From Enterobacteria phage RB33, in sequence record KM607001: a stretch of DNA of 64,000 nt. One strand, given 5' to 3'. The translations under genes were made by a program, and so were the position numbers. Within the stretch, counting starts at the first letter, position 1. Each line of letters opens with the position of its first letter. The notes under the pieces were generated by a model. It did no database searches and had not been told where the DNA came from. It saw nothing but the letters and a program-made list of their open reading frames with translations. Below, piece by piece: positions 1 through 50,969 of this stretch.

Positions 1-2178
1 TTAGGCCGCAAGGGCCTTCATAGTTTTAGCGATTTGGGAAACTTCATCATCACTTAAAGAGTTGCGATAACCGATGAAGTCGGAAACAATACGGAATTTC
101 TTGGTAAACTCAGCAACCATTTTATCACTGTTTTTTGAAGCATTATTTGATAATACATCAAAAAGATTAGTTACTGTCCAGATGTCATGACCAATGGTAT
201 CTTTTCCACCATTAAAATATACACCCTGTAATGAACTAACCATATTAGCGAGTCGTGTATATTCTTCAGAAACTTCATCTACACTGAAGTACTTCATCAT
301 AAAATCTAGCTCAGGATACTTGATAATTTTATCAATATATCGTTTAGCTGAACTTGAATAACCTACATACTTATCATAATCTACATCATCAAAAGCATCT
401 ACATATAAATCACGTAAAGCTTCAAAAATACATTGGCACTGACCGAGTTCTTTTACCTTTTTCTGTAAAAGCGGACGAATAACATAAAATTCATTAATGC
501 CAATAAGATTAGCCATACGAATCAAAATATTCATAGATGGATGACAAAGAGATGTAGTACCATCCATAGAGAAAATATCAGAACGATGCATATACGCTAC
601 ATAACCAGTAATTTCATCTGCTTCTGACGTGAGCGTAAATAATTCCTCTTTTTCCCAGCGCCCGTCTTTAATTTCAAACTTAAATGCTGTAGCAGCTTTA
701 GGACGAGGAGCTTTACTTTTAACTACCTTTGGAATATAGCTTTTAACTAAAGCTTCAATTTCTGACAAATAATGAATGTTAACTTCATCACTTTCAAACA
801 TCGCCATAATGTCAGGAAGCAAATCAATCTGCGATTCTACTTCTGGATTAATAAACAGAAGGCGTTCGTTGTGATGAATATTTAAAGTGTTATTAAATTC
901 ACTATCATCTAACGCATGTGCTAATCCACGGACAATATTAACACGATTTTTAATATTATCAATAACGATATTAATTTTTGTTGTATTAATACCAAACAGA
1001 CGATAACTTGATGCAATGGCTGAAGTTTCATGACTTTGCTTAATGCGTTTCAGTCGAGGGTCAAGATTTACTTCATACACAACTCCTGCATTGCATAACT
1101 TACTGTCAGGTTCAAACATGCTTTGCATCTTTTTATATGACAGATTTTTAGTCGTGAATTTGACTGAATTACTAATCATATAATCTCGAGCAGAATACCC
1201 CATCTTCATCAATTCACGGTATGTGTGACGAGGAGATGTAGATTCTTTAAATCGTTTTACATCTTCATTAAATGCTTTCTCACTAAGCTCTTTAACTCGT
1301 TCAATAATATTTTTACGAGTACGATCATCCAGTGAAAGAGCTTCACGAGATGGAGCAATATCAAGTGAACCCATTGGAAACTTAATGTAATTCACTTCAT
1401 TGCGAATGCTTAGCCAGTTACGGTCTCTAATAACACCATCGATAGGATAAACAATACCACCATAGATAGCATATAATCCACCACGATCAGGCCAGTATCT
1501 TTCTGGATTTACGCCGTAATAATCATCAAAATCCGGAAAATAATCAATTTCGCGGTCAAGACCATTAATGATAGCCAAATCTTTGAATGGTCGCATGATA
1601 TAAGAAACTTCATAAGCAAAGTTTCTAAAGTCTTTTTCTTCAACTGGAACTACGATTTCAATACCAGTTTTATCATCTGGACCCATTTCTTTTACGAATG
1701 TAGGTTTAATCTGTGGTCCATCACCATCCATGTAAGCTACATAACCACGAATTTCACCTTTATGATACGAAGTAATACTAAACGTATCAGTATAACTAAA
1801 CGGAGATTTAGAACCTAAACCAAATCCGCCAATGAAATCGTTAGATTCAGCCTTAGATGAACTGAAGTATGAATTATACAGACCAGGAGAATTATCATCA
1901 CCCTGAATATCAAAATCACTCATACCCGGACCAAAATCTCGACAAACAAATCGCGGATCTAAACGTCCAGGAACTTGTATAATAAATTTTTCAGGATTTC
2001 CATTAAGTGCATGAGCATCAATCATGTTAGTAATCAATTCACGGACTACTGCGCGAATCTTGTTTGTATACAAATCAGATGACAGAATTTTAAATACTTT
2101 AGGAGATGCTGTGATGCTAAATGCTTTTGATTTAGAACCATTACCAAGAATTGTTTCTTTTTCAGTGGTGATAATCAT
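1..2178 (-). CDS. rIIA: rIIA protein, complete (725 aa); stop codon at window edge
   Basis: 725-aa ORF; N-terminus [16 protein letters not shown] and length match T4 rIIA as remembered. Confidence 0.9.
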
Positions 2179-7068: not shown

Positions 7069-7688
7069 TTATCTCATTTCAATAAAATCTACGAGTTCGG
7101 CATAGGATTTACGGAACATTACTTGATGCCCACCAATGATAACTTGGTCATCTGGTACTTCGTATACAGCAAGATAAAATCCTTTCGAAGATAATTCTTC
7201 CCGCTCTTCTCGCGTGAACCATCTCATCATATCATACTCACTAGCGAAAGCAAAATGATAAAGAGCTATAAACCATCCTGGAATATGATATTCTACTCCA
7301 ACATAATCTTTCTTGAACTTAGTATTAATTACTATATTAGCGTTTTTAACTAATAGTTTATCTTCGTGTGGTAAAGGAATTCTTTTATTATTATCGCTAT
7401 GATGCGATATTCTACTCCAACATAATCTTTCTTGAACTTAGTATTAATTACTATATTAGCGTTTTTAACTAATAGTTTATCTTCGTGTGGTAAAGGAATT
7501 CTTTTATTATTATCGCTATGATGCATAAAATTAGGTCTGTCATAACCTACGTGTAATAGCCACTCTTCACTCCATGAATCTATTATACTCCTGTACGGCG
7601 TTATTTGAACACAAAGATTTCGACGTATTGTTATAGCATCTTCATAATCAAGAATACTAAACGATGATTCAACACGATAAATTTTCAT
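7069..7688 (-). pseudogene. motB.2-position gene disrupted by a 119-bp tandem duplication (frameshift, premature TAG at 7350)
   Basis: ORF from ATG 7688 reads through copy 7406-7524 in frame, then out of frame in copy 7287-7405; removing one copy restores a 166-codon ORF ending at TAA 7069-7071. Confidence 0.6.
7287..7524. repeat. perfect tandem duplication, 2 x 119 bp
   Basis: 7287-7405 and 7406-7524 are identical base for base. Confidence 0.9.
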
Positions 7689-7751: not shown

Positions 7752-8435
7752 TTATCGTTTTGTTGGAAGAGACAGAGGATCGCAATCTTCCTCTGACGGA
7801 GCATCTTCAAGACCCATAGCGTATCGCAAAGCATACTTCATCATCAGGATGTCTTTCGCACAGTCATGAATAGAATTATGCGCAACGAATCCATCTAAAG
7901 TTCCCTTTGGAAGGGGACACGTTGTCATATCACGAACAAGCAGAAGTGCTTCAATTCTGGTACGAATATCACGCTGATTCCAGAATTTACATGGTTCTAA
8001 CTTAAATGTATCAAGCTCATTCTCGGAAACGCCGTTAAGACGTTGAATATCGCGAATGAGATCGACTAAAATTGGAAAATCAAACGACATTCCACGGCAC
8101 CAGCCTTGAGATTTCCAAGGATCGATATTATGTGCATTGATGTAATCATTAAATTTTGCAATACCATCAATGGTGCTTACATCTTCATCTGATGGTGCAA
8201 TATTTTTTCGAGCTTCAGGAGATTGATTCTTCCACCATTCGATAGTGCTTTTAGTAAAAAGACGATGTCCTTTTTGGCTTTTTAAATCAAACTTGATTTT
8301 AATGCCGCGTGAAACTAATTCATCAAATGTTTCAACTACTTCTGGATTAGGGTCAAAGGCAATAACAGCCAAATCAATAACAGCTGCCTTTTCACCGCTT
8401 CCCATTGTTTCAAAATCTATAATAAAATCAAACAT
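7752..8435 (-). CDS. dexA: exonuclease A (DnaQ-like 3'-5' exonuclease), 227 aa
   Basis: 227-aa ORF with DEDD-type motifs (FIIDFETMG, HNSIHDCAKD); length as T4 DexA. Confidence 0.85.
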   Translation of the reverse strand: MFDFIIDFETMGSGEKAAVIDLAVIAFDPNPEVVETFDELVSRGIKIKFDLKSQKGHRLFTKSTIEWWKNQSPEARKNIAPSDEDVSTIDGIAKFNDYINAHNIDPWKSQGWCRGMSFDFPILVDLIRDIQRLNGVSENELDTFKLEPCKFWNQRDIRTRIEALLLVRDMTTCPLPKGTLDGFVAHNSIHDCAKDILMMKYALRYAMGLEDAPSEEDCDPLSLPTKR

Positions 8436-12918: not shown

Positions 12919-13389
12919 CTAGCGATAAAAACCAAAATGACGATTAGCTTCAGCAATCTTTCTTTCTTCTTCGGACATTCTCCAGCGTAGTCCAACATCA
13001 AAATGAGCCCAGACCATCTTAACAAATGCATTTATATCTTTAATATCTTCAATAATGAATGTTTTACTTTTAAAAGGCTGACTCGCTAATTTAACTTTAT
13101 CATCTTCAAACAGGTCAAAAAGACCATATTCGTGAGCTCTTTTATAGCCTTTAATAGTTAAAGCTTCAGAAGAAGAAAATGGTGAATCTGTATTCTGCAA
13201 AATATCTTCAGTATGCTTTATAATTAGAATAATATTTTCTGGATATTTTCTTTCTTTTATATCTTTAATTAAAATATCCGGATTTTCTGCTAAAGGAATA
13301 ATTAACGAGCAATTTTTATCAAGTGTATTTACTGATTTACCTTCTTTAGACATAAATCCTATTGAATACAGTTTTGCTACTTCAATCAT
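12919..13389 (-). CDS. hypothetical protein
   Basis: 156-aa ORF in track. Confidence 0.55.
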
Positions 13390-13542
13390 GTGATTTCCTC
13401 TTGCCTACTAATGGACCATCAGGAATTTTGTTTTCCTGGATATACTTCTCATTTTCTTCCATCATTTTACTACCGATTTTAAGAAGCAAATCCAACGCTT
13501 CATTTGCTTTAACCTTAGCTTCTTCTAATGTCATATCTTTGT

Positions 13543-13746
13543 TCACGATTTATCCCCATAGATGTCTCTCATCAATTTAAGCGCTGAGCGTTCTAGTTTC
13601 TTTTCTTTCTCAGCACTAATCATTGATTTCATCCATTCTTCTGATTCGTTCTGCATTTCTTTATTTGCTTGTTCAACCCAACCATCGTCAATGTACATTG
13701 AGTTTGGTCTATTGAACCATTCAAACATTTTCTTCAGAACTTTCAT
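13543..13746 (-). CDS. hypothetical protein, 67 aa
   Basis: ORF in track; its start lies inside the proximal copy of the 91-bp duplication. Confidence 0.55.
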
Positions 13747-13868
13747 TTGTTTTACCTAAAACAACAGTAGGAGCATCGTCAATGTACATTGAGTTTGGTC
13801 TATTGAACCATTCAAACATTTTCTTCAGAACTTTCATTTGTTTTACCTAAAACAACAGTAGGAGCATC
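13683..13868. repeat. perfect tandem duplication, 2 x 91 bp with 4-bp CATC junction microhomology
   Basis: positions p and p+91 identical for p = 13683..13777. Confidence 0.9.
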
Positions 13869-15873: not shown

Positions 15874-16074
15874 ATGGTACAAAAATTAATGGCACTTGTT
15901 AATGCCATCAAAGGTAATAAAAAGCGTATAGCTTTTACTATTTCTGTTATGGTAGGAATTTTACTCTGGAACTTTATTTTATCACCAATTGCAATTGCGC
16001 ATGGTGTTAATATTCCAGTAGTTACTCTTGATACATTTGTAGATTTAGCATTTGCTTTAGTTGGGTTAATTTAA
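15874..16074 (+). CDS. small hydrophobic protein (66 aa, about 2 TM), plus strand
   Basis: AAGGAGG 4 nt before ATG; ORF fills the gene-56 to gene-61 gap exactly and its stop overlaps the gene 61 stop. Confidence 0.45.
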   Translation: MVQKLMALVNAIKGNKKRIAFTISVMVGILLWNFILSPIAIAHGVNIPVVTLDTFVDLAFALVGLI

Positions 16075-29634: not shown

Positions 29635-30321
29635 TTAAAAATCGTGGGTAGAATCAGCTTCAAGAGCTACCACATAATTCGCGTGTTCACCTTCAAATTT
29701 AGCAGCACCTTGTTTACCTTTTGCCCAGAGCAGAAGTTTATAATTTCCTGGTTGCATTTTCATATTTGCCATATTGATAATGAAATTAAATGTATTTTCA
29801 CCATCATAATCACCAAGAGTCAAAGAATATTTAACACGGGTCAGAGCAGAATCTTCTACTTTATTAAAACCGTTAATTACGATTTTACCTTCTTTTACCG
29901 TGATAGCAATTGTATCAATTTGCAGACCACGAGATACACGCAACAGTTGTTGAAGGTCTTCAGCTTTAATTTCAGTAACAACAGATGCTACCGGGAATGG
30001 AATTGGTTTATTAGGAGCAACTACTGTACTCGGATCGGCTGCTGGCCAAAAAATTGTTGAGCGAGCATCAGCAATTTTAATATTACCATCTTCTGACTGG
30101 GAAATTTCTGCATCATCATTAACTAGAGACAGAATACCGAGAAAACCGTTCAAATCGTAAATTGCTACATCAAAATCAATAACGTCAGAAATATTTGCTT
30201 CCGCATAAGTTGTACCATTAACTGCGCGAGTCATAATAAATTGACCGGATTTAAGCATAATACCAGAGTTAATAGTAGCGAAATTTTTAAGCAGAGCAGT
30301 AGTATCTTTAGACAGTTTCAT
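29635..30321 (-). CDS. 45: sliding clamp gp45, 228 aa
   Basis: 228 aa as T4 gp45; position. Confidence 0.9.
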   Translation of the reverse strand: MKLSKDTTALLKNFATINSGIMLKSGQFIMTRAVNGTTYAEANISDVIDFDVAIYDLNGFLGILSLVNDDAEISQSEDGNIKIADARSTIFWPAADPSTVVAPNKPIPFPVASVVTEIKAEDLQQLLRVSRGLQIDTIAITVKEGKIVINGFNKVEDSALTRVKYSLTLGDYDGENTFNFIINMANMKMQPGNYKLLLWAKGKQGAAKFEGEHANYVVALEADSTHDF

Positions 30322-30352
30322 GTAATTTCCTTCAATTCAAATGAGATTTAAT

Positions 30353-30375
30353 TTTATAACTAATTTAATAAAGCA
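30353..30375 (-). promoter_or_regulatory. MotA-dependent middle promoter of gene 45
   Basis: minus strand TTGCTTTA-10/12 bp-TATAAA(A)T. Confidence 0.45.
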
Positions 30376-30376
30376 A

Positions 30377-30766
30377 TTAACGATTAAAATCAGCCGCAAT
30401 TGTTTCGGCAACAATTTGAGCAGCAACAATCAGACGTTCATCTGCATTGCCGCAATAATCATCTTCAAGGCGTTCATGACCATGTGCCATAAGAACCTTA
30501 GCACCGGCGTTTAGGGATTCTGTAGTATGTTTGCGCATTAGTTCAATCCATTTATTACTTACTTCACGATCGATAGCTTCATAATACGCATGACGAGCAG
30601 GTGCAGATTTAATTTTGTTCTGAATAACTTCCATTGCGTTATCAGAAAGAGACAAAACCCATGCGCGACGAATTTTATTTTGGTTTTGTGGATTTGATTC
30701 AGAACGCACGTGTTTTGGCTGAATATCTTTTACATCAACAGTATAATTCACAGTAATTTTAGTCAT
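30377..30766 (-). CDS. rpbA: RpbA-like protein, 129 aa
   Basis: size and position downstream of 45; contains [10 protein letters not shown] motif shared with the internal-protein gene. Confidence 0.5.
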
Positions 30767-30775
30767 AATACACCT

Positions 30776-30967
30776 TTAGTCATAATAATCAGTAACAGTC
30801 CAAGCTTCATTTCTATTGGACATTATTTTTGTATATTCTGCTTTAAATGCATTCCTAAGCATAGATTCAGTAACTATATGCTCTTCATTAGAAAAATTAT
30901 TTCTCAGAATATATCGTTTTATTTCAGGAATAGTTAATAGATGCTGTCCAGTTGAATATTCTGCCAC
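30776..30967 (-). CDS. hypothetical protein (45.2 position)
   Basis: 63-aa ORF in track. Confidence 0.5.
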   Translation of the reverse strand: MAEYSTGQHLLTIPEIKRYILRNNFSNEEHIVTESMLRNAFKAEYTKIMSNRNEAWTVTDYYD

Positions 30968-30977
30968 AGTTCCTCCG

Positions 30978-30985
30978 TATAAATA
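30978..30985 (+). promoter_or_regulatory. late promoter TATAAATA on plus strand upstream of the HNH gene
   Basis: exact TATAAATA about 34 nt upstream of ATG 31019. Confidence 0.5.
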
Positions 30986-31018
30986 TGTTTATCACTCGCT
31001 GTATCAAAAGGATATGTT

Positions 31019-31735
31019 ATGAATTATAAACTAATTTATGAAAAGTTAATCTCTAATGCTAAATCTCGAAAACTTGATTGCTATACTGAATCTCATCACA
31101 TTATACCACGCTGTTTAAATGGCAGCGATGATGCTTCAAACTTAGTAGATTTAACACCAGAAGAGCACTATGTAGCTCATCAACTTTTAGTAAAAATTTA
31201 TCCTTCTGAACCAAAATTAGTCTATGCTGCTAACATGATGACAGTTTCTACGAAATACGCTAAACGCAACAATAAAACTTTCGGTTGGATTCGTCGTAAA
31301 CTCTGGGAATTAGAAAAGAATAAAGAATTCTCCCAGGAGACACGAAAGAAAATGTCTGATGCAGTAGCTAATAAAGCAAGACTAACTTGTCCTCATTGCG
31401 GTAAGTCTGGATTAAGCGGGAATATGAATCGTTGGCATTTTGATAACTGCCCAAATCACCCTAATCCTAAAGTTAGACCACCAATGTCTAAAGAACACAG
31501 AAATAATATCTCAAACGGGCTTAAAGCAATCGTTCTTGAAGAAACATCCTGCGAATTCTGCGGAATGATAGGCAAGAAATGCGTTATCGCAGCGCATAGA
31601 AATTTCTGCAAGAAAAATCCAAATGGACGCAAGAAAACTGAAAAGACTGGTACTTGCGTCCATTGCGGTAAAGTTACCACTTTCGGAAATTTATCAAGGT
31701 GGCATAATGATAACTGTAAATATAAACCTAGCTAA
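31019..31735 (+). CDS. free-standing HNH homing endonuclease with C-terminal zinc-finger repeats, 238 aa
   Basis: HNH core ESHHIIPRCLNGSDDASNLVDLTPEEHYVAH; CPHCGK...WHFDNC and CVHCGK...WHNDNC; AAGGA before ATG. Confidence 0.8.
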   Translation: MNYKLIYEKLISNAKSRKLDCYTESHHIIPRCLNGSDDASNLVDLTPEEHYVAHQLLVKIYPSEPKLVYAANMMTVSTKYAKRNNKTFGWIRRKLWELEKNKEFSQETRKKMSDAVANKARLTCPHCGKSGLSGNMNRWHFDNCPNHPNPKVRPPMSKEHRNNISNGLKAIVLEETSCEFCGMIGKKCVIAAHRNFCKKNPNGRKKTEKTGTCVHCGKVTTFGNLSRWHNDNCKYKPS

Positions 31736-33416
31736 TCTTAGCTAAACTAAATCTACCAACTTTTTCCATCTGAATATGCTGACCATATTCTTGTGGGTCA
31801 TGGTCTTTATGCGAAATTATGAAGAAGTTGGTATCCTTCAAACCATCTAAAATTTTAGCTACATTTTTAATGCCTTCAGCATCAAATGCACCATCATACA
31901 CTTCATCAAGAAATAAACAACTTATTTTAACACCTGAAACTTTTTCAGCAATATCACGCCAAGTAAATAAAAGAGCAATATCAATTCGCGCTTTTTCACC
32001 TTGACTAAATGAAGCATAACTAAAATCTTCACGACCACGGGATTTAATTGTCTCATTAAATTCTTCATCTAATGTAAACACATAATCTGCTTCCATTATT
32101 TTAAGATAATGGTTAATCTGCTTATTAAATAATGGAATGTACTTTTTAATAATAGCACCTTTAATACCAGAATCTTTGAGCATATCAGTCAAAATTCCTC
32201 GGTGGTATTTTTCCATTACTAAATTAGTTTTTGTCTTAACAATTTTATCAAGTTCTTCTTGAAGCAGTGCTATTTCATCAGCATGGTCAATAAATTCAGA
32301 AGATGCTTTTTCTATAGCCGCTTTAACTTTTTTAGCTTTATCTACCGTCGTGATTAGAGATTGCTTTTTATTGCGAATATCATTTGCCAACGTCTGCTGG
32401 GTTTTAATATTATCTCGGTATTCATCAACAAGAACTTTTAAATTATCACGATGTGTTGAAAGCTGTTCAAATGAATGTGTGCATTCAGAAACTTTATCTT
32501 TAATTTTAGAAACAACTTTATCACCGGAACTTAATTGTGACAAACAGGTTGGACATAATCCACCTTCGTGATACATATTAATGACTTTATTATACGAGTC
32601 AATTTTTGATTTAATTAAAACTGCTTCTTGACCGATTTTATTAAATGCATCAGTAGGGTCTTCATCCAAAACAATATTAACTAATCTTTCATTAGCTTCT
32701 TCTATTTCCGATTTTAGCGTTCTAGCTTCTTTTGCCAAATCATCATACATATTTTGCAGACGAGTAAGGTTGTCACCCGTTAATTTTTTCTGGCGTTCAA
32801 CGTTATCATTATATATTTTAATTTGTTGGATAATACTATCTTTTTTAACATCAAGCACTTGGTTTTGTGAATTTAATTCACGTATTAGTGCTTTATTAAG
32901 CTTATCCATTTCAGCTAATGTTCCTACCTCAAGCAGGTCTTCCACAAGCTTTCTTCGCGCAGGGGTCGACAAACCCATGAAAGGGGTATACCCTGCTGTA
33001 CCAAGGACAACAATCTGCTTGAAACTGGCATATGACATTCCGATAAGCTGTTCAAATTCTGCTTGGAAATCTTTACTGCTGGCAGATTCATTAAGACGTG
33101 TACCGTTAATGGTGATTTCAAAAACGTTCGGTTTTTGTCCTCTTTTGATATAGTACTTTTTCTCATCATATTCCATCCACAGTTCAACTAAAAGTTCTTT
33201 CTTATTTGTGCTGTTTATTAATTGACCTTTCTTTACATCACGAAATGGCTTACCAAAAAGCCCAAATGTGATGGCTTCTAACATAGTAGACTTACCACCG
33301 CCATTTCGTCCAGTAATAAGAGTTTTTTGAACCTTATCTAATTGAATGTCAATAGGATTTCCACCTACTGACATTATATTTTGATACCTAACTCGGTTTA
33401 GTTTAAAATTCTTCAC
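31728..33416 (-). CDS. 46: recombination endonuclease subunit gp46 (Rad50/SbcC-like), 562 aa
   Basis: Walker A GRNGGGKST, signature SQGE, Walker B LFLDE. Confidence 0.9.
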   Translation of the reverse strand: MKNFKLNRVRYQNIMSVGGNPIDIQLDKVQKTLITGRNGGGKSTMLEAITFGLFGKPFRDVKKGQLINSTNKKELLVELWMEYDEKKYYIKRGQKPNVFEITINGTRLNESASSKDFQAEFEQLIGMSYASFKQIVVLGTAGYTPFMGLSTPARRKLVEDLLEVGTLAEMDKLNKALIRELNSQNQVLDVKKDSIIQQIKIYNDNVERQKKLTGDNLTRLQNMYDDLAKEARTLKSEIEEANERLVNIVLDEDPTDAFNKIGQEAVLIKSKIDSYNKVINMYHEGGLCPTCLSQLSSGDKVVSKIKDKVSECTHSFEQLSTHRDNLKVLVDEYRDNIKTQQTLANDIRNKKQSLITTVDKAKKVKAAIEKASSEFIDHADEIALLQEELDKIVKTKTNLVMEKYHRGILTDMLKDSGIKGAIIKKYIPLFNKQINHYLKIMEADYVFTLDEEFNETIKSRGREDFSYASFSQGEKARIDIALLFTWRDIAEKVSGVKISCLFLDEVYDGAFDAEGIKNVAKILDGLKDTNFFIISHKDHDPQEYGQHIQMEKVGRFSLAKIS

Positions 33417-50249: not shown

Positions 50250-50969
50250 TTAGGATTCTTCTAAATGTCTTTTCTGAAAAGTTGATACCATACTACGATA
50301 CGGTTCATTTGGATATCCGTGTTTTATAGCTTCCTTTGTAAATTTTCTCCATCCATATTTAGTTTCTTTCCAAAGCTCGAATAATTCATCTTCATACTGC
50401 CATATAGTTAAATGAGAACGCTTTGCAGCTTTAATTCCATTAATATGCTTTTCTTTTACTGCAGGATTGTTTAGTTTCTTTTTAATAATATTACTAACTT
50501 TTCTAACAAAAACTGGGTCCTTATATCGTTGCGAAGTTTTTATTGAAGTGTTTAATTTAGCTTCCGGCGTGGATGTGACCTCTTTCATCTTTTTCTTCAT
50601 ATGCTGTATATGATTAGGATTTTTCCATAAATTTATAGAATGCTTTTTGCATTTTATCCTAGTTTCATCTGCAACCTTTCCTCCTTCACCCCCGTATGAC
50701 AGGTTAACACAGTTTTTTCCATATTTCAATTTACCTGCCATGATATATAATATTTCAGCTTGTACCATTTTATCATAATTATCAAAAACTTCTAAAACCG
50801 TTTTTGATAATATGTGGTCATTTGACACTTTTACACGTTCTATATAATTTCCACTACCAACATACGAATCATTGATGTTATTAGTTATATGTCGACCATA
50901 ATAGTATTTCTTAATACCTGTCTTTAAATTTAATATTTCAGTTTTATAGATAGTAAAATATTTTTTCAT
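50250..50969 (-). CDS. putative GIY-YIG homing endonuclease with NUMOD-like C-terminal repeats, 239 aa
   Basis: N-terminal TIY-(x11)-YYYG-RH pattern; lysine-rich repeats resembling Seg/I-TevI DNA-binding modules. Confidence 0.5.
   Translation of the reverse strand: MKKYFTIYKTEILNLKTGIKKYYYGRHITNNINDSYVGSGNYIERVKVSNDHILSKTVLEVFDNYDKMVQAEILYIMAGKLKYGKNCVNLSYGGEGGKVADETRIKCKKHSINLWKNPNHIQHMKKKMKEVTSTPEAKLNTSIKTSQRYKDPVFVRKVSNIIKKKLNNPAVKEKHINGIKAAKRSHLTIWQYEDELFELWKETKYGWRKFTKEAIKHGYPNEPYRSMVSTFQKRHLEES

Follow-up and report, generated by a model that had tools for sequence, protein, structure and literature searches.

A mob-like HNH endonuclease gene between 45.2 and gene 46 of T-even phages very probably homes as part of a cassette of about 1 kb

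The 64,000-nucleotide stretch of Enterobacteria phage RB33 analyzed here (KM607001; the window) contains a gene that runs against its neighbors, 45.2 and gene 46, and this locus raises the question of what the gene encodes, how it came to its place, and by which means it persists there. Between 30300 and 32300, the window and Escherichia phage RB32 (DQ904452 / NC_008515) of the genus Tequatrovirus show 100% identity, and the open reading frame at 31019-31735 is identical to RB32ORF054w. Window coordinates equal those of the RB32 record plus 119, because a 119-bp tandem duplication (7406-7524) is present only in the window. The gene and its surroundings comprise the following features.

31019-31735, plus strand: HNH endonuclease coding sequence (RB32ORF054w), an intact frame of 238 amino acids with an ATG start
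31007-31012, plus strand: Shine-Dalgarno sequence AAAGGA, read from the sequence, 6 nt 5' of the endonuclease ATG
30776-30967, minus strand: 45.2
31728-33416, minus strand: gene 46
31728-31735: 8-nt overlap between the stops of the endonuclease gene and gene 46

The endonuclease frame is divergent from 45.2 (head-to-head, with a gap of 51 nt) and convergent with gene 46 (tail-to-tail), and the coordinates bear out the 8-nt stop overlap given in the preliminary description. By Pfam, the neighbors are Gp45_2, RpbA, and an SMC/Rad50-like ATPase. The same description regarded the gene as the only strong plus-strand gene of the window, which holds for open reading frames of at least 100 amino acids, the others being shadows of minus-strand genes, but not for the 66-amino-acid RB32ORF030w that the RB32 record annotates on the plus strand. 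Its central proposal, an opposite-strand mobile HNH endonuclease between 45.2 and gene 46, is in agreement with homology, annotation, and presence/absence alike. GenBank labels RB32ORF054w as a mob-like putative homing endonuclease, "similar to mobB", and RefSeq as "homing endonuclease". Petrov et al. listed two seg-like and two mob-like HNH endonuclease genes for RB32 in 2010 (PMC2993671, Table 5), and RB32ORF054w is counted among the two mob-like ones. It is thus a known and ordinary member of the mob-like, free-standing HNH homing endonuclease genes of T-even phages, and, as it was already annotated in GenBank/RefSeq and counted in the 2010 review, its value as a discovery is small. Our literature search found no experimental work on RB32ORF054w. 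What we add here are the boundaries of the cassette, the occupation of one site in several genera, a conserved late promoter motif, and a specific candidate target with an immunity substitution in the essential recombination gene 46.

The 238-amino-acid protein combines a nuclease domain with an extended DNA-binding part.

31088-31180, plus strand: HNH catalytic core, amino acids 24-54 (E24, H26, H27, N41, H50, H54)
31328-31369, plus strand: first NUMOD3-like helix, amino acids 104-117 (FSQETRKKMSDAVA)
31388-31450, plus strand: zinc finger 1, C2HC (CPHCGKSGLSGNMNRWHFDNC), ligands C124/C127/H140/C144
31550-31609, plus strand: zinc finger 2, C2HC, more divergent (CEFCGMIGKKCVIAAHRNFC), ligands C178/C181/H193/C197
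31655-31717, plus strand: zinc finger 3, C2HC (CVHCGKVTTFGNLSRWHNDNC), ligands C213/C216/H229/C233

The protein is matched by PHROG 655, "homing endonuclease", with an E value of 6e-69. The Pfam HNH model PF01844 covers only amino acids 23-43 with 16.9 bits (E 0.007), below its gathering cut-off of 21.4, which is a model threshold and not a defining chemical feature. The assignment to the family is based on PHROG 655, on the invariant motif, and on the homology with T4 MobB and MobE. Pfam NUMOD3 (PF07460) likewise scores below its cut-off of 20.4 at amino acids 103-115 (12.5 bits, E 0.14), and by NCBIfam, amino acids 19-104 align with the HNH region of IscB (E 3.6e-5). A large protein collection held 2304 homologues, most of which carry a precomputed annotation as PF07460 and a few as PF01844. 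In an alignment of 57 sequences, E24, H26, H27, P30, G35, N41, H50, H54, W90, and C213/C216/H229/C233 are invariant, which substantiates the HNH core that had been noticed at the outset. Finger 3, whose ligands are invariant in 57/57 homologues, is common to the whole family; the ligands of fingers 1 and 2 are invariant in the 21 closest homologues, so that all 12 finger ligands are invariant there. The zinc-finger repeats of the preliminary description are therefore real, but they number three C2HC fingers and not two.

The AlphaFold2 model, built with an alignment (pLDDT 94), is consistent with this organization. It places the HNH beta-beta-alpha core in strands 24-27 and 42-45 and helix 47-60, the NUMOD3-like helices at 106-117 and 158-170, with finger 2 following the second of these, and the fingers in three beta-beta-alpha units, which a second model, built for the C-terminal 121 residues, shows as well. 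The protein has the conserved His...Asn...His of a beta-beta-alpha-metal core, and the fingers carry Cys-x2-Cys...His-x3-Cys ligands on a beta-hairpin and helix. The best Foldseek matches were the fingers of TRAF6 (E 0.007) and CTCF (E 0.03) and the Cep104 array, none of which reaches E 0.001 and all with low TM-scores; fold searches with the whole chain of the model gave no significant match, and a sequence search against solved structures gave marginal matches only. Between endonuclease alleles of the same genus, synonymous and replacement changes number 21/3, 14/1, 12/5, 9/6, and 7/1, corresponding to dN/dS of 0.02-0.16 and indicating purifying selection, and every copy examined has a single terminal stop. 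The joining of a nuclease to a three-finger DNA-binding array might be of interest to enzyme engineers.

How such an inverted gene might be expressed is suggested by the sequence upstream of it.

30978-30985, plus strand: T4-type late promoter motif TATAAATA, an exact match ending 33 nt 5' of the ATG

In T4, the consensus of late promoters is TATAAATA, at -13 to -6 (Nolan et al. 2006, PMC1524935), and transcription from the present copy is predicted to start near 30991. The exact match had been pointed out before and is verified here, and the same octamer precedes the ATG of the orthologues by 35-41 nt in Dhakavirus (04086 and IME281) and Mosigvirus (348Ecol098PP and ST0). It is thus exact in three genera, Tequatrovirus, Dhakavirus, and Mosigvirus, though the remaining leader has diverged; a leader element, GCTGTATCAAA..AAGGA, is also kept in the three. 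The motif is expected at about 8.5e-5 matches per base per strand, or about 0.5% for a 60-nt upstream stretch on the right strand. Enrichment was dropped as evidence, as the window holds 6 copies versus 10.9 expected, and because the motif is not enriched, its weight comes from its position and its conservation among orthologues. In Slopekvirus and EC-F1, the corresponding position is taken by CTTAAATA and CCTAAATA, and since the octamer is degenerate and non-canonical there, the case for a late promoter is weaker in these phages. A scan of 30300-32300 for sigma-70 promoters found none serving the endonuclease gene, and a scan of the same interval for intrinsic terminators found none between the endonuclease gene and the convergent gene 46. 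Overall, the motif points to late, gp55-dependent transcription of the endonuclease gene from TATAAATA. RNA structure was not significant either in the leader or at the convergent junction (z-scores of -1.05 and -1.10), and the idea of an RBS-sequestering or a junction structure was rejected. A small TAGCTA-ATCT-TAGCTA hairpin is present at the stop overlap, without conservation in RB51.

In order to delimit the insertion, we compared RB32 base by base over 18 kb with four carriers of the gene (teqhad, NIC06P2, Pu-Krd-SF4, and F13076) and four non-carriers (T4, T2, RB3, and CrRp10), taking the boundaries from the BLAST-based per-base comparison. The site is empty in the four non-carriers, in which 45.2 and gene 46 are separated by 55-56 nt; in T4 the gap is 55 nt and contains no open reading frame. 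Two further stretches set carriers and non-carriers apart.

30962-30977, minus strand: left edge of the cassette, with a replaced 45.2 start and the 45.2 Shine-Dalgarno sequence GGAGG; the non-carrier alignment is lost from 30962
31748-31946, minus strand: diverged, carrier-linked allele of the gene 46 3' end, from Walker B to the gp46 C-terminus

On the left, non-carriers match RB32 fully up to 30961, in the second codon of 45.2, and they cannot be aligned with it from 30962 to 31747. RB32 45.2 starts with GTG and has an extra Ala codon (MAEY, compared to MEY in T4), and T4 has CATGTTTTTCCTCC in the 45.2 start region at the position where RB32 has TGCCACAGTTCCTCC. The same extra Ala codon is found in the Mosigvirus carrier 348Ecol098PP, while the non-carrier RB69 reads MEY. 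On the right, the gene 46 tract of non-carriers has 80-83% identity to RB32 (40-50 mismatches) between flanks of 98-100%, compared to 96-98% in carriers, and the divergence ends abruptly near 31946 in the T4/RB3 type and near 31921 in the T2/CrRp10 type, where identity returns to 98-99%. The replaced end covers the part of gp46 with Walker B, D-loop, and H-loop as well as its C-terminal tail, which reads SLAKIS in RB32, SVATIN in RB51, and TVMV in T4 and T2; the last six gene 46 codons (SLAKIS) are specific to the cassette. BLAST with the gene 46 tract alone returned 59 records at 95% identity or more, none at 90-95%, and all others at 90% or less, and this diverged allele of about 200 bp always accompanies the endonuclease gene. 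With nothing at 90-95%, the search revealed no closer source of the tract outside the carriers.

As delimited by these alignments, the differing unit is about 1 kb long, from 30962 to approximately 31946, and consists of the new 45.2 start with its Shine-Dalgarno sequence, the motif of the late promoter, the gene for the endonuclease, and the replaced gene 46 end. In rpbA, within 500 bp of the left edge, the carriers split into two haplotypes, each common to some non-carriers: Pu-Krd-SF4 and F13076 group with CrRp10, and RB32, teqhad, and NIC06P2 with T4, T2, and RB3. As the left-flank haplotypes of carriers differ and are common to non-carriers, the cassette is not simply the marker of one clade. 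Mosaic flanks alone, on the other hand, are no proof of endonuclease-driven transfer, because T-even phages recombine very freely.

The presence of the gene is not universal, so that the reading as a mobile gene survives the test of universal presence that the preliminary description had set for it. Comparison of the interval from rpbA to gene 46 among relatives, which the preliminary description had proposed as a check on mobility, showed endonuclease DNA in 58 of about 650 flank-matching Tequatrovirus records, full length in all 58, next to the empty sites of T4, T2, RB3, and CrRp10. With a joined-flank query, all records at 95% or more (60) span the insert, and empty-site records among the matches listed reach at most 93.4%. 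Overall, about 90% of the Tequatrovirus and Mosigvirus records are without the gene. By tblastn, full-length relatives were found beside gene 46 in other Straboviridae.

Dhakavirus: 04086 and IME281, 64% protein identity to RB32, 9 carrier records in the BLAST census
Mosigvirus: 348Ecol098PP and ST0, 58% protein identity to RB32, 14 carrier records, with RB69 and HX01 empty
Pseudotevenvirus (as filed in the record): EC-F1, 44% protein identity to RB32
Slopekvirus: phT4A and Lemur_ER36, 42% protein identity to RB32, 68 carrier records

These orthologues occupy one site in one inverted orientation in at least four genera, pointing away from a 45.2-like gene and toward gene 46, and presence/absence polymorphism is seen in Tequatrovirus, Mosigvirus, Dhakavirus, and Slopekvirus. 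Among other Slopekvirus genomes, Miro is empty, and Satellite_ER45 has a different HNH gene of 185 amino acids on the other strand. The orthologue of ST0 is an intact open reading frame that carries no annotation.

The free-standing endonucleases of T4 cleave within a conserved gene close to where they are themselves inserted, and it is at the cleavage site that carriers are altered (PMC2988022, PMC2790892). In the present case, the contrast between carriers and non-carriers within the gene 46 end singles out one short stretch.

31767-31781, minus strand: candidate recognition/cleavage core, in its putatively immune form CAG CAT ATT CAG ATG

The form of the non-carriers, susceptible by our proposal, is CA(G/A) CAT CTT CAA ATG. 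CAT CTT CAA ATG was found in 8/8 non-carriers sampled from three genera (T4, T2, RB3, CrRp10, RB69, HX01, IME08, and JS98), and 437 records keep the non-carrier 60-nt gene 46 end at an identity of 95% or more. In 9/9 carriers the Leu codon, at 31773-31775 on the minus strand of RB32, is altered: to ATT (Ile) in Tequatrovirus, to TTG in Mosigvirus, and to TTA in Dhakavirus, the last two being synonymous; this contrast amounts to three independent genus-level comparisons and not to 17. In Mosigvirus, the flanking sequences hardly differ between carriers and non-carriers. Within the final 60 nt of gene 46, the only differences seen against RB69 and HX01 alike concern the tail codons and the bases 45 and 47 nt from the stop, the latter a two-base change from CAT CTT CAA ATG to CAT TTG CAA ATG that leaves Leu unchanged. 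We read CAT CTT CAA ATG as the likeliest candidate for the recognition/cleavage core and the Leu codon change as its putative immunity substitution, although the codon change could instead have hitch-hiked with the donor allele.

Taken together, we consider it very probable that the gene is a free-standing T-even homing endonuclease gene of the Mob kind that travels as a cassette of about 1 kb, and propose the following mechanism. Late in infection, gp55-RNA polymerase would start at the TATAAATA of the cassette, near 30991, and transcribe the endonuclease gene in the direction opposite to that of the early and middle genes around it. The 238-amino-acid protein would bind DNA via its two NUMOD3-like helices and three C2HC beta-beta-alpha fingers, and its N-terminal HNH domain would nick or cut the endonuclease-free gene 46 allele of a co-infecting relative, the likeliest site lying at or near CAT CTT CAA ATG, which is some 45 bp ahead of the stop of gene 46 and some 50 bp away from where the insertion lies. 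Recombinational repair off the carrier genome would then copy the endonuclease gene together with the adjacent gene 46 end, and carrier genomes would be protected because their target sequence is altered. Cleavage, the exact target, homing, and late transcription are what we infer from the comparisons described above. A narrower formulation, which we put forward tentatively and rate a little short of probable, is that one lineage tracks the last ~50 bp of the Rad50-like gene 46 across at least four Straboviridae genera, using its own late promoter, reading DNA with three C2HC fingers, and protecting its carriers by change of one Leu codon (CTT to ATT/TTG/TTA). If this is true, the lineage is in effect a natural zinc-finger nuclease, with target and immunity mutation predicted at single-codon resolution.

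Comparison with known T4 systems shows which parts of this arrangement are familiar. T4 MobE nicks nrdB close to where its own gene is inserted and shows preferential inheritance (PMC2790892), and mobE is, like RB32ORF054w, a free-standing HNH gene between conserved T-even genes. MobE (141 amino acids) has 43% identity to the RB32 protein over the HNH domain and the first NUMOD3 (E 1e-29), and the neighboring T4 frame nrdB.1 encodes a NUMOD3 and a C2HC finger that is 58% identical to RB32 finger 3. T4 thus has a single finger in a separate open reading frame, whereas RB32ORF054w has three. The two genes also differ in that mobE lacks its own promoter and is transcribed together with nrdA, both genes pointing the same way (PMC2790892), whereas RB32ORF054w is inverted with its own late motif, and in their sites, mobE lying at nrdA/nrdB with nrdB as the target and RB32ORF054w at 45.2/46 with gene 46 as the presumed target. 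T4 MobB has 44% identity to the RB32 protein over amino acids 1-110, the HNH part (E 7e-30), but its C-terminal half is unrelated and without C2HC fingers; mobB lies in the same genome neighborhood, after a-gt, on the same strand as its own neighbors, unlike RB32ORF054w. By alignment, the closest counterparts of RB32ORF054w are MobE plus nrdB.1 in architecture and MobB in the nuclease domain.

With respect to orientation, the counterpart is segD, the sole T4 free-standing endonuclease gene that opposes its neighbors, genes 23 and 24 (PMC2988022). SegD is a GIY-YIG enzyme, in contrast to the HNH product of RB32ORF054w; no own promoter was found for segD (PMC2988022), unlike the conserved late promoter motif here, and according to a title cited in PMC10448857, SegD fails to home its own gene. 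The T4 intron endonucleases I-TevI and I-TevIII resemble what is predicted for RB32ORF054w in their late-restricted expression from middle/late promoters just upstream of the frame (PMC2988022, PMC2790892), and the HNH chemistry of I-TevIII and I-TevI's zinc finger can likewise be compared to it. Genes of this type reside inside self-splicing introns and use RBS-sequestering hairpins, whereas RB32ORF054w is without an intron and without significant leader structure, and the I-TevI operator overlaps its promoter, whereas no operator-like match is seen here. Compared to the T4 examples, RB32ORF054w thus stands out in three ways, namely its inversion (shared only by segD), its own conserved late motif, and its three fingers.

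Two other histories of the gene have to be weighed against homing. A descendant of a homing endonuclease might have been domesticated and be kept for the benefit of the phage, for example in excluding relatives or evading host defense. The strong purifying selection and the persistence at one site through genus-level divergence fit such a role, as do the 58/58 full-length copies without any decaying remnant; the lack of decayed copies could indeed reflect a gene kept for other use, because a simple homing cycle predicts some. Host-beneficial cases have been published, in that SegB amplifies anti-defense loci (PMC13096335) and a further case, the HEG-derived odn gene, is mentioned in PMC10448857. 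However, the gene is clearly dispensable, given the ~90% of Tequatrovirus/Mosigvirus records that lack it, and a linked altered-target allele is just what a selfish cutter needs. We therefore regard domestication as unlikely, and in part as a matter of emphasis, as exclusion and homing are two outcomes of one cleavage. Considerably less probable still is an ancient insertion that was inherited vertically, repeatedly lost by deletion or recombination, and no longer cleaves. It would agree with the occupation of the same site in several genera, with a protein identity that drops from 64% to 42% approximately in parallel to the distance between the phages, and with the SegD precedent, the other opposite-strand endonuclease gene being reported not to home its own gene (PMC2988022 and an entry in the reference list of PMC10448857). 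An immobile remnant is at odds with invariant catalytic and zinc ligands at dN/dS of 0.02-0.16 and with flanking haplotypes of carriers that differ within 500 bp and are common to non-carriers. Moreover, mere loss would not yield the synonymous changes at one gene 46 codon to which carriage is tied in two genera. Homing thus remains the preferred reading.

The insertion also bears on the promoters of its neighbors. In T4, T2, and CrRp10, the minus strand of the gap holds ATTATGCTTTA-N11-TATAAT just ahead of 45.2, a site that RB32 lacks. It has the look of a textbook MotA-box middle promoter for 45.2, an assignment that is made from sequence since we found no usable published mapping of a T4 promoter upstream of 45.2. 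Both RB32 and T4 keep the promoter-like site that precedes gene 45. The removal of a MotA-type promoter would suit a protein that is mainly a DNA-binding regulator, whose fingers control the neighboring genes or whose late antisense transcription damps gp46 synthesis, with a nuclease activity that is secondary or absent. The convergence of the endonuclease gene with gene 46, without a terminator found between them, and the precedent of I-TevI, which doubles as a repressor (PMC2988022), point the same way. Against this stand the conserved HNH residues, the complete absence of the gene from most relatives, and the lack of significant RNA structure in the leader and at the convergent junction. 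An operator in the style of I-TevI was also rejected, as local alignment of promoter/leader and candidate target in three genera was no better than with shuffles; the two share no similarity. A primarily regulatory role therefore appears highly improbable, and we retain the homing endonuclease reading.

The loss of the MotA-type site upstream of 45.2 would be a further example of an endonuclease insertion displacing the promoter of a neighbor. A candidate replacement, TGCTTTA-N13-TATTAT, lies antisense within the endonuclease gene, from 31528 downward on the minus strand. It is kept in five Tequatrovirus alleles despite three variable spacer bases and is absent from the other genera, and 3.9% of shuffles yield a site like it. 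Promoters embedded in endonuclease genes are known from segG, segA, segE, mobB, and mobC (PMC2988022).

We found at least three sharply distinct haplotypes in the last ~200 bp of gene 46 (window 31748-31946, minus strand) within Tequatrovirus, namely that of T4 and RB3, that of T2 and CrRp10, and the carrier type, which is linked to the endonuclease gene. Many of the differences between the haplotypes alter amino acids near the Walker B to H-loop region. Recurrent conversion here may have left this pattern behind. The phage database counts comprised 59 records with the carrier-type gene 46 tract compared to 58 with the endonuclease DNA; the additional record may harbor the tract without the endonuclease gene or may be incomplete.

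Further endonuclease genes were identified at or near this site in loci of relatives, each with its own coordinates:

L021 (Klebsiella phage Satellite_ER45) 945-1499, minus strand: different HNH endonuclease gene, 185 aa, at the 45.2-like/gene 46 junction
L022 (Escherichia phage ST0, NC_041990) 802-1518, plus strand: intact endonuclease orthologue, 238 aa
L010 6475-7362, minus strand: F13076 endonuclease gene, between 45 and rpbA
L007 12258-12881, minus strand: teqhad HNH gene, between 47 and a-gt
L011 (T4) 12986-13780, minus strand: mobB, after a-gt

In some Slopekvirus genomes, the 45.2-like/gene 46 junction is occupied by the other 185-aa HNH gene, which is co-oriented with its neighbours. 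One site is therefore contested by different, competing endonuclease genes. The orthologue of ST0 is unannotated in its RefSeq record, although it is intact. The 45-to-a-gt stretch of relatives is rich in additional endonuclease genes, of which RB32 lacks the F13076 45/rpbA gene, the teqhad 47/a-gt HNH gene, and T4 mobB.

The insertion also bears on the promoters around 45.2:

L011 (T4) 8348-8402 (record 33247-33301): 46/45.2 gap with a minus-strand MotA-type middle promoter, assigned by sequence, ATTATGCTTTA-N11-TATAAT
Window 31503-31528, minus strand: candidate embedded middle promoter, TGCTTTA-N13-TATTAT, antisense within the endonuclease gene

The former motif is present in the empty gap of T4, T2, and CrRp10, immediately upstream of 45.2. 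The T4 gap is the counterpart of window 30968-31727, and this predicted promoter is lost through the insertion in RB32. The embedded candidate is kept in five Tequatrovirus alleles, though three spacer bases vary, and a similar site arises in 3.9% of shuffles; the endonuclease orthologues of other genera contain no such candidate.

In the alignment, the whole RB32 endonuclease is covered by T4 mobE (141 aa) combined with nrdB.1 (83 aa), the ORF that follows it; the two are located at 717-1417 (minus strand) of the T4 locus L027. MobE corresponds to the HNH plus NUMOD3 part of the RB32 protein and nrdB.1 to the NUMOD3 plus C2HC finger part. The T4 pair resembles a split form of a full-length gene.

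Two other RB32 genes were localized in the window:

Window 15874-16074, plus strand: RB32ORF030w, hypothetical ORF of 66 aa, flanked by genes 56 and 61 and labelled 'similar to RB69ORF029w'
Window 50250-50969, minus strand: RB32ORF093c, 239-aa seg-like putative endonuclease, nrdC region

RB32ORF030w is the sole annotated plus-strand gene of the window besides the endonuclease gene. RB32ORF093c is another of the four endonuclease genes of RB32.

The motB.2 region contains a perfect tandem duplication of 119 bp (window 7406-7524; repeat unit 7287-7405). It is absent from the RB32 GenBank record DQ904452, from which the window otherwise differs by ~1 base across the first 24 kb, indicating that the window is a variant of RB32 or re-sequenced RB32.
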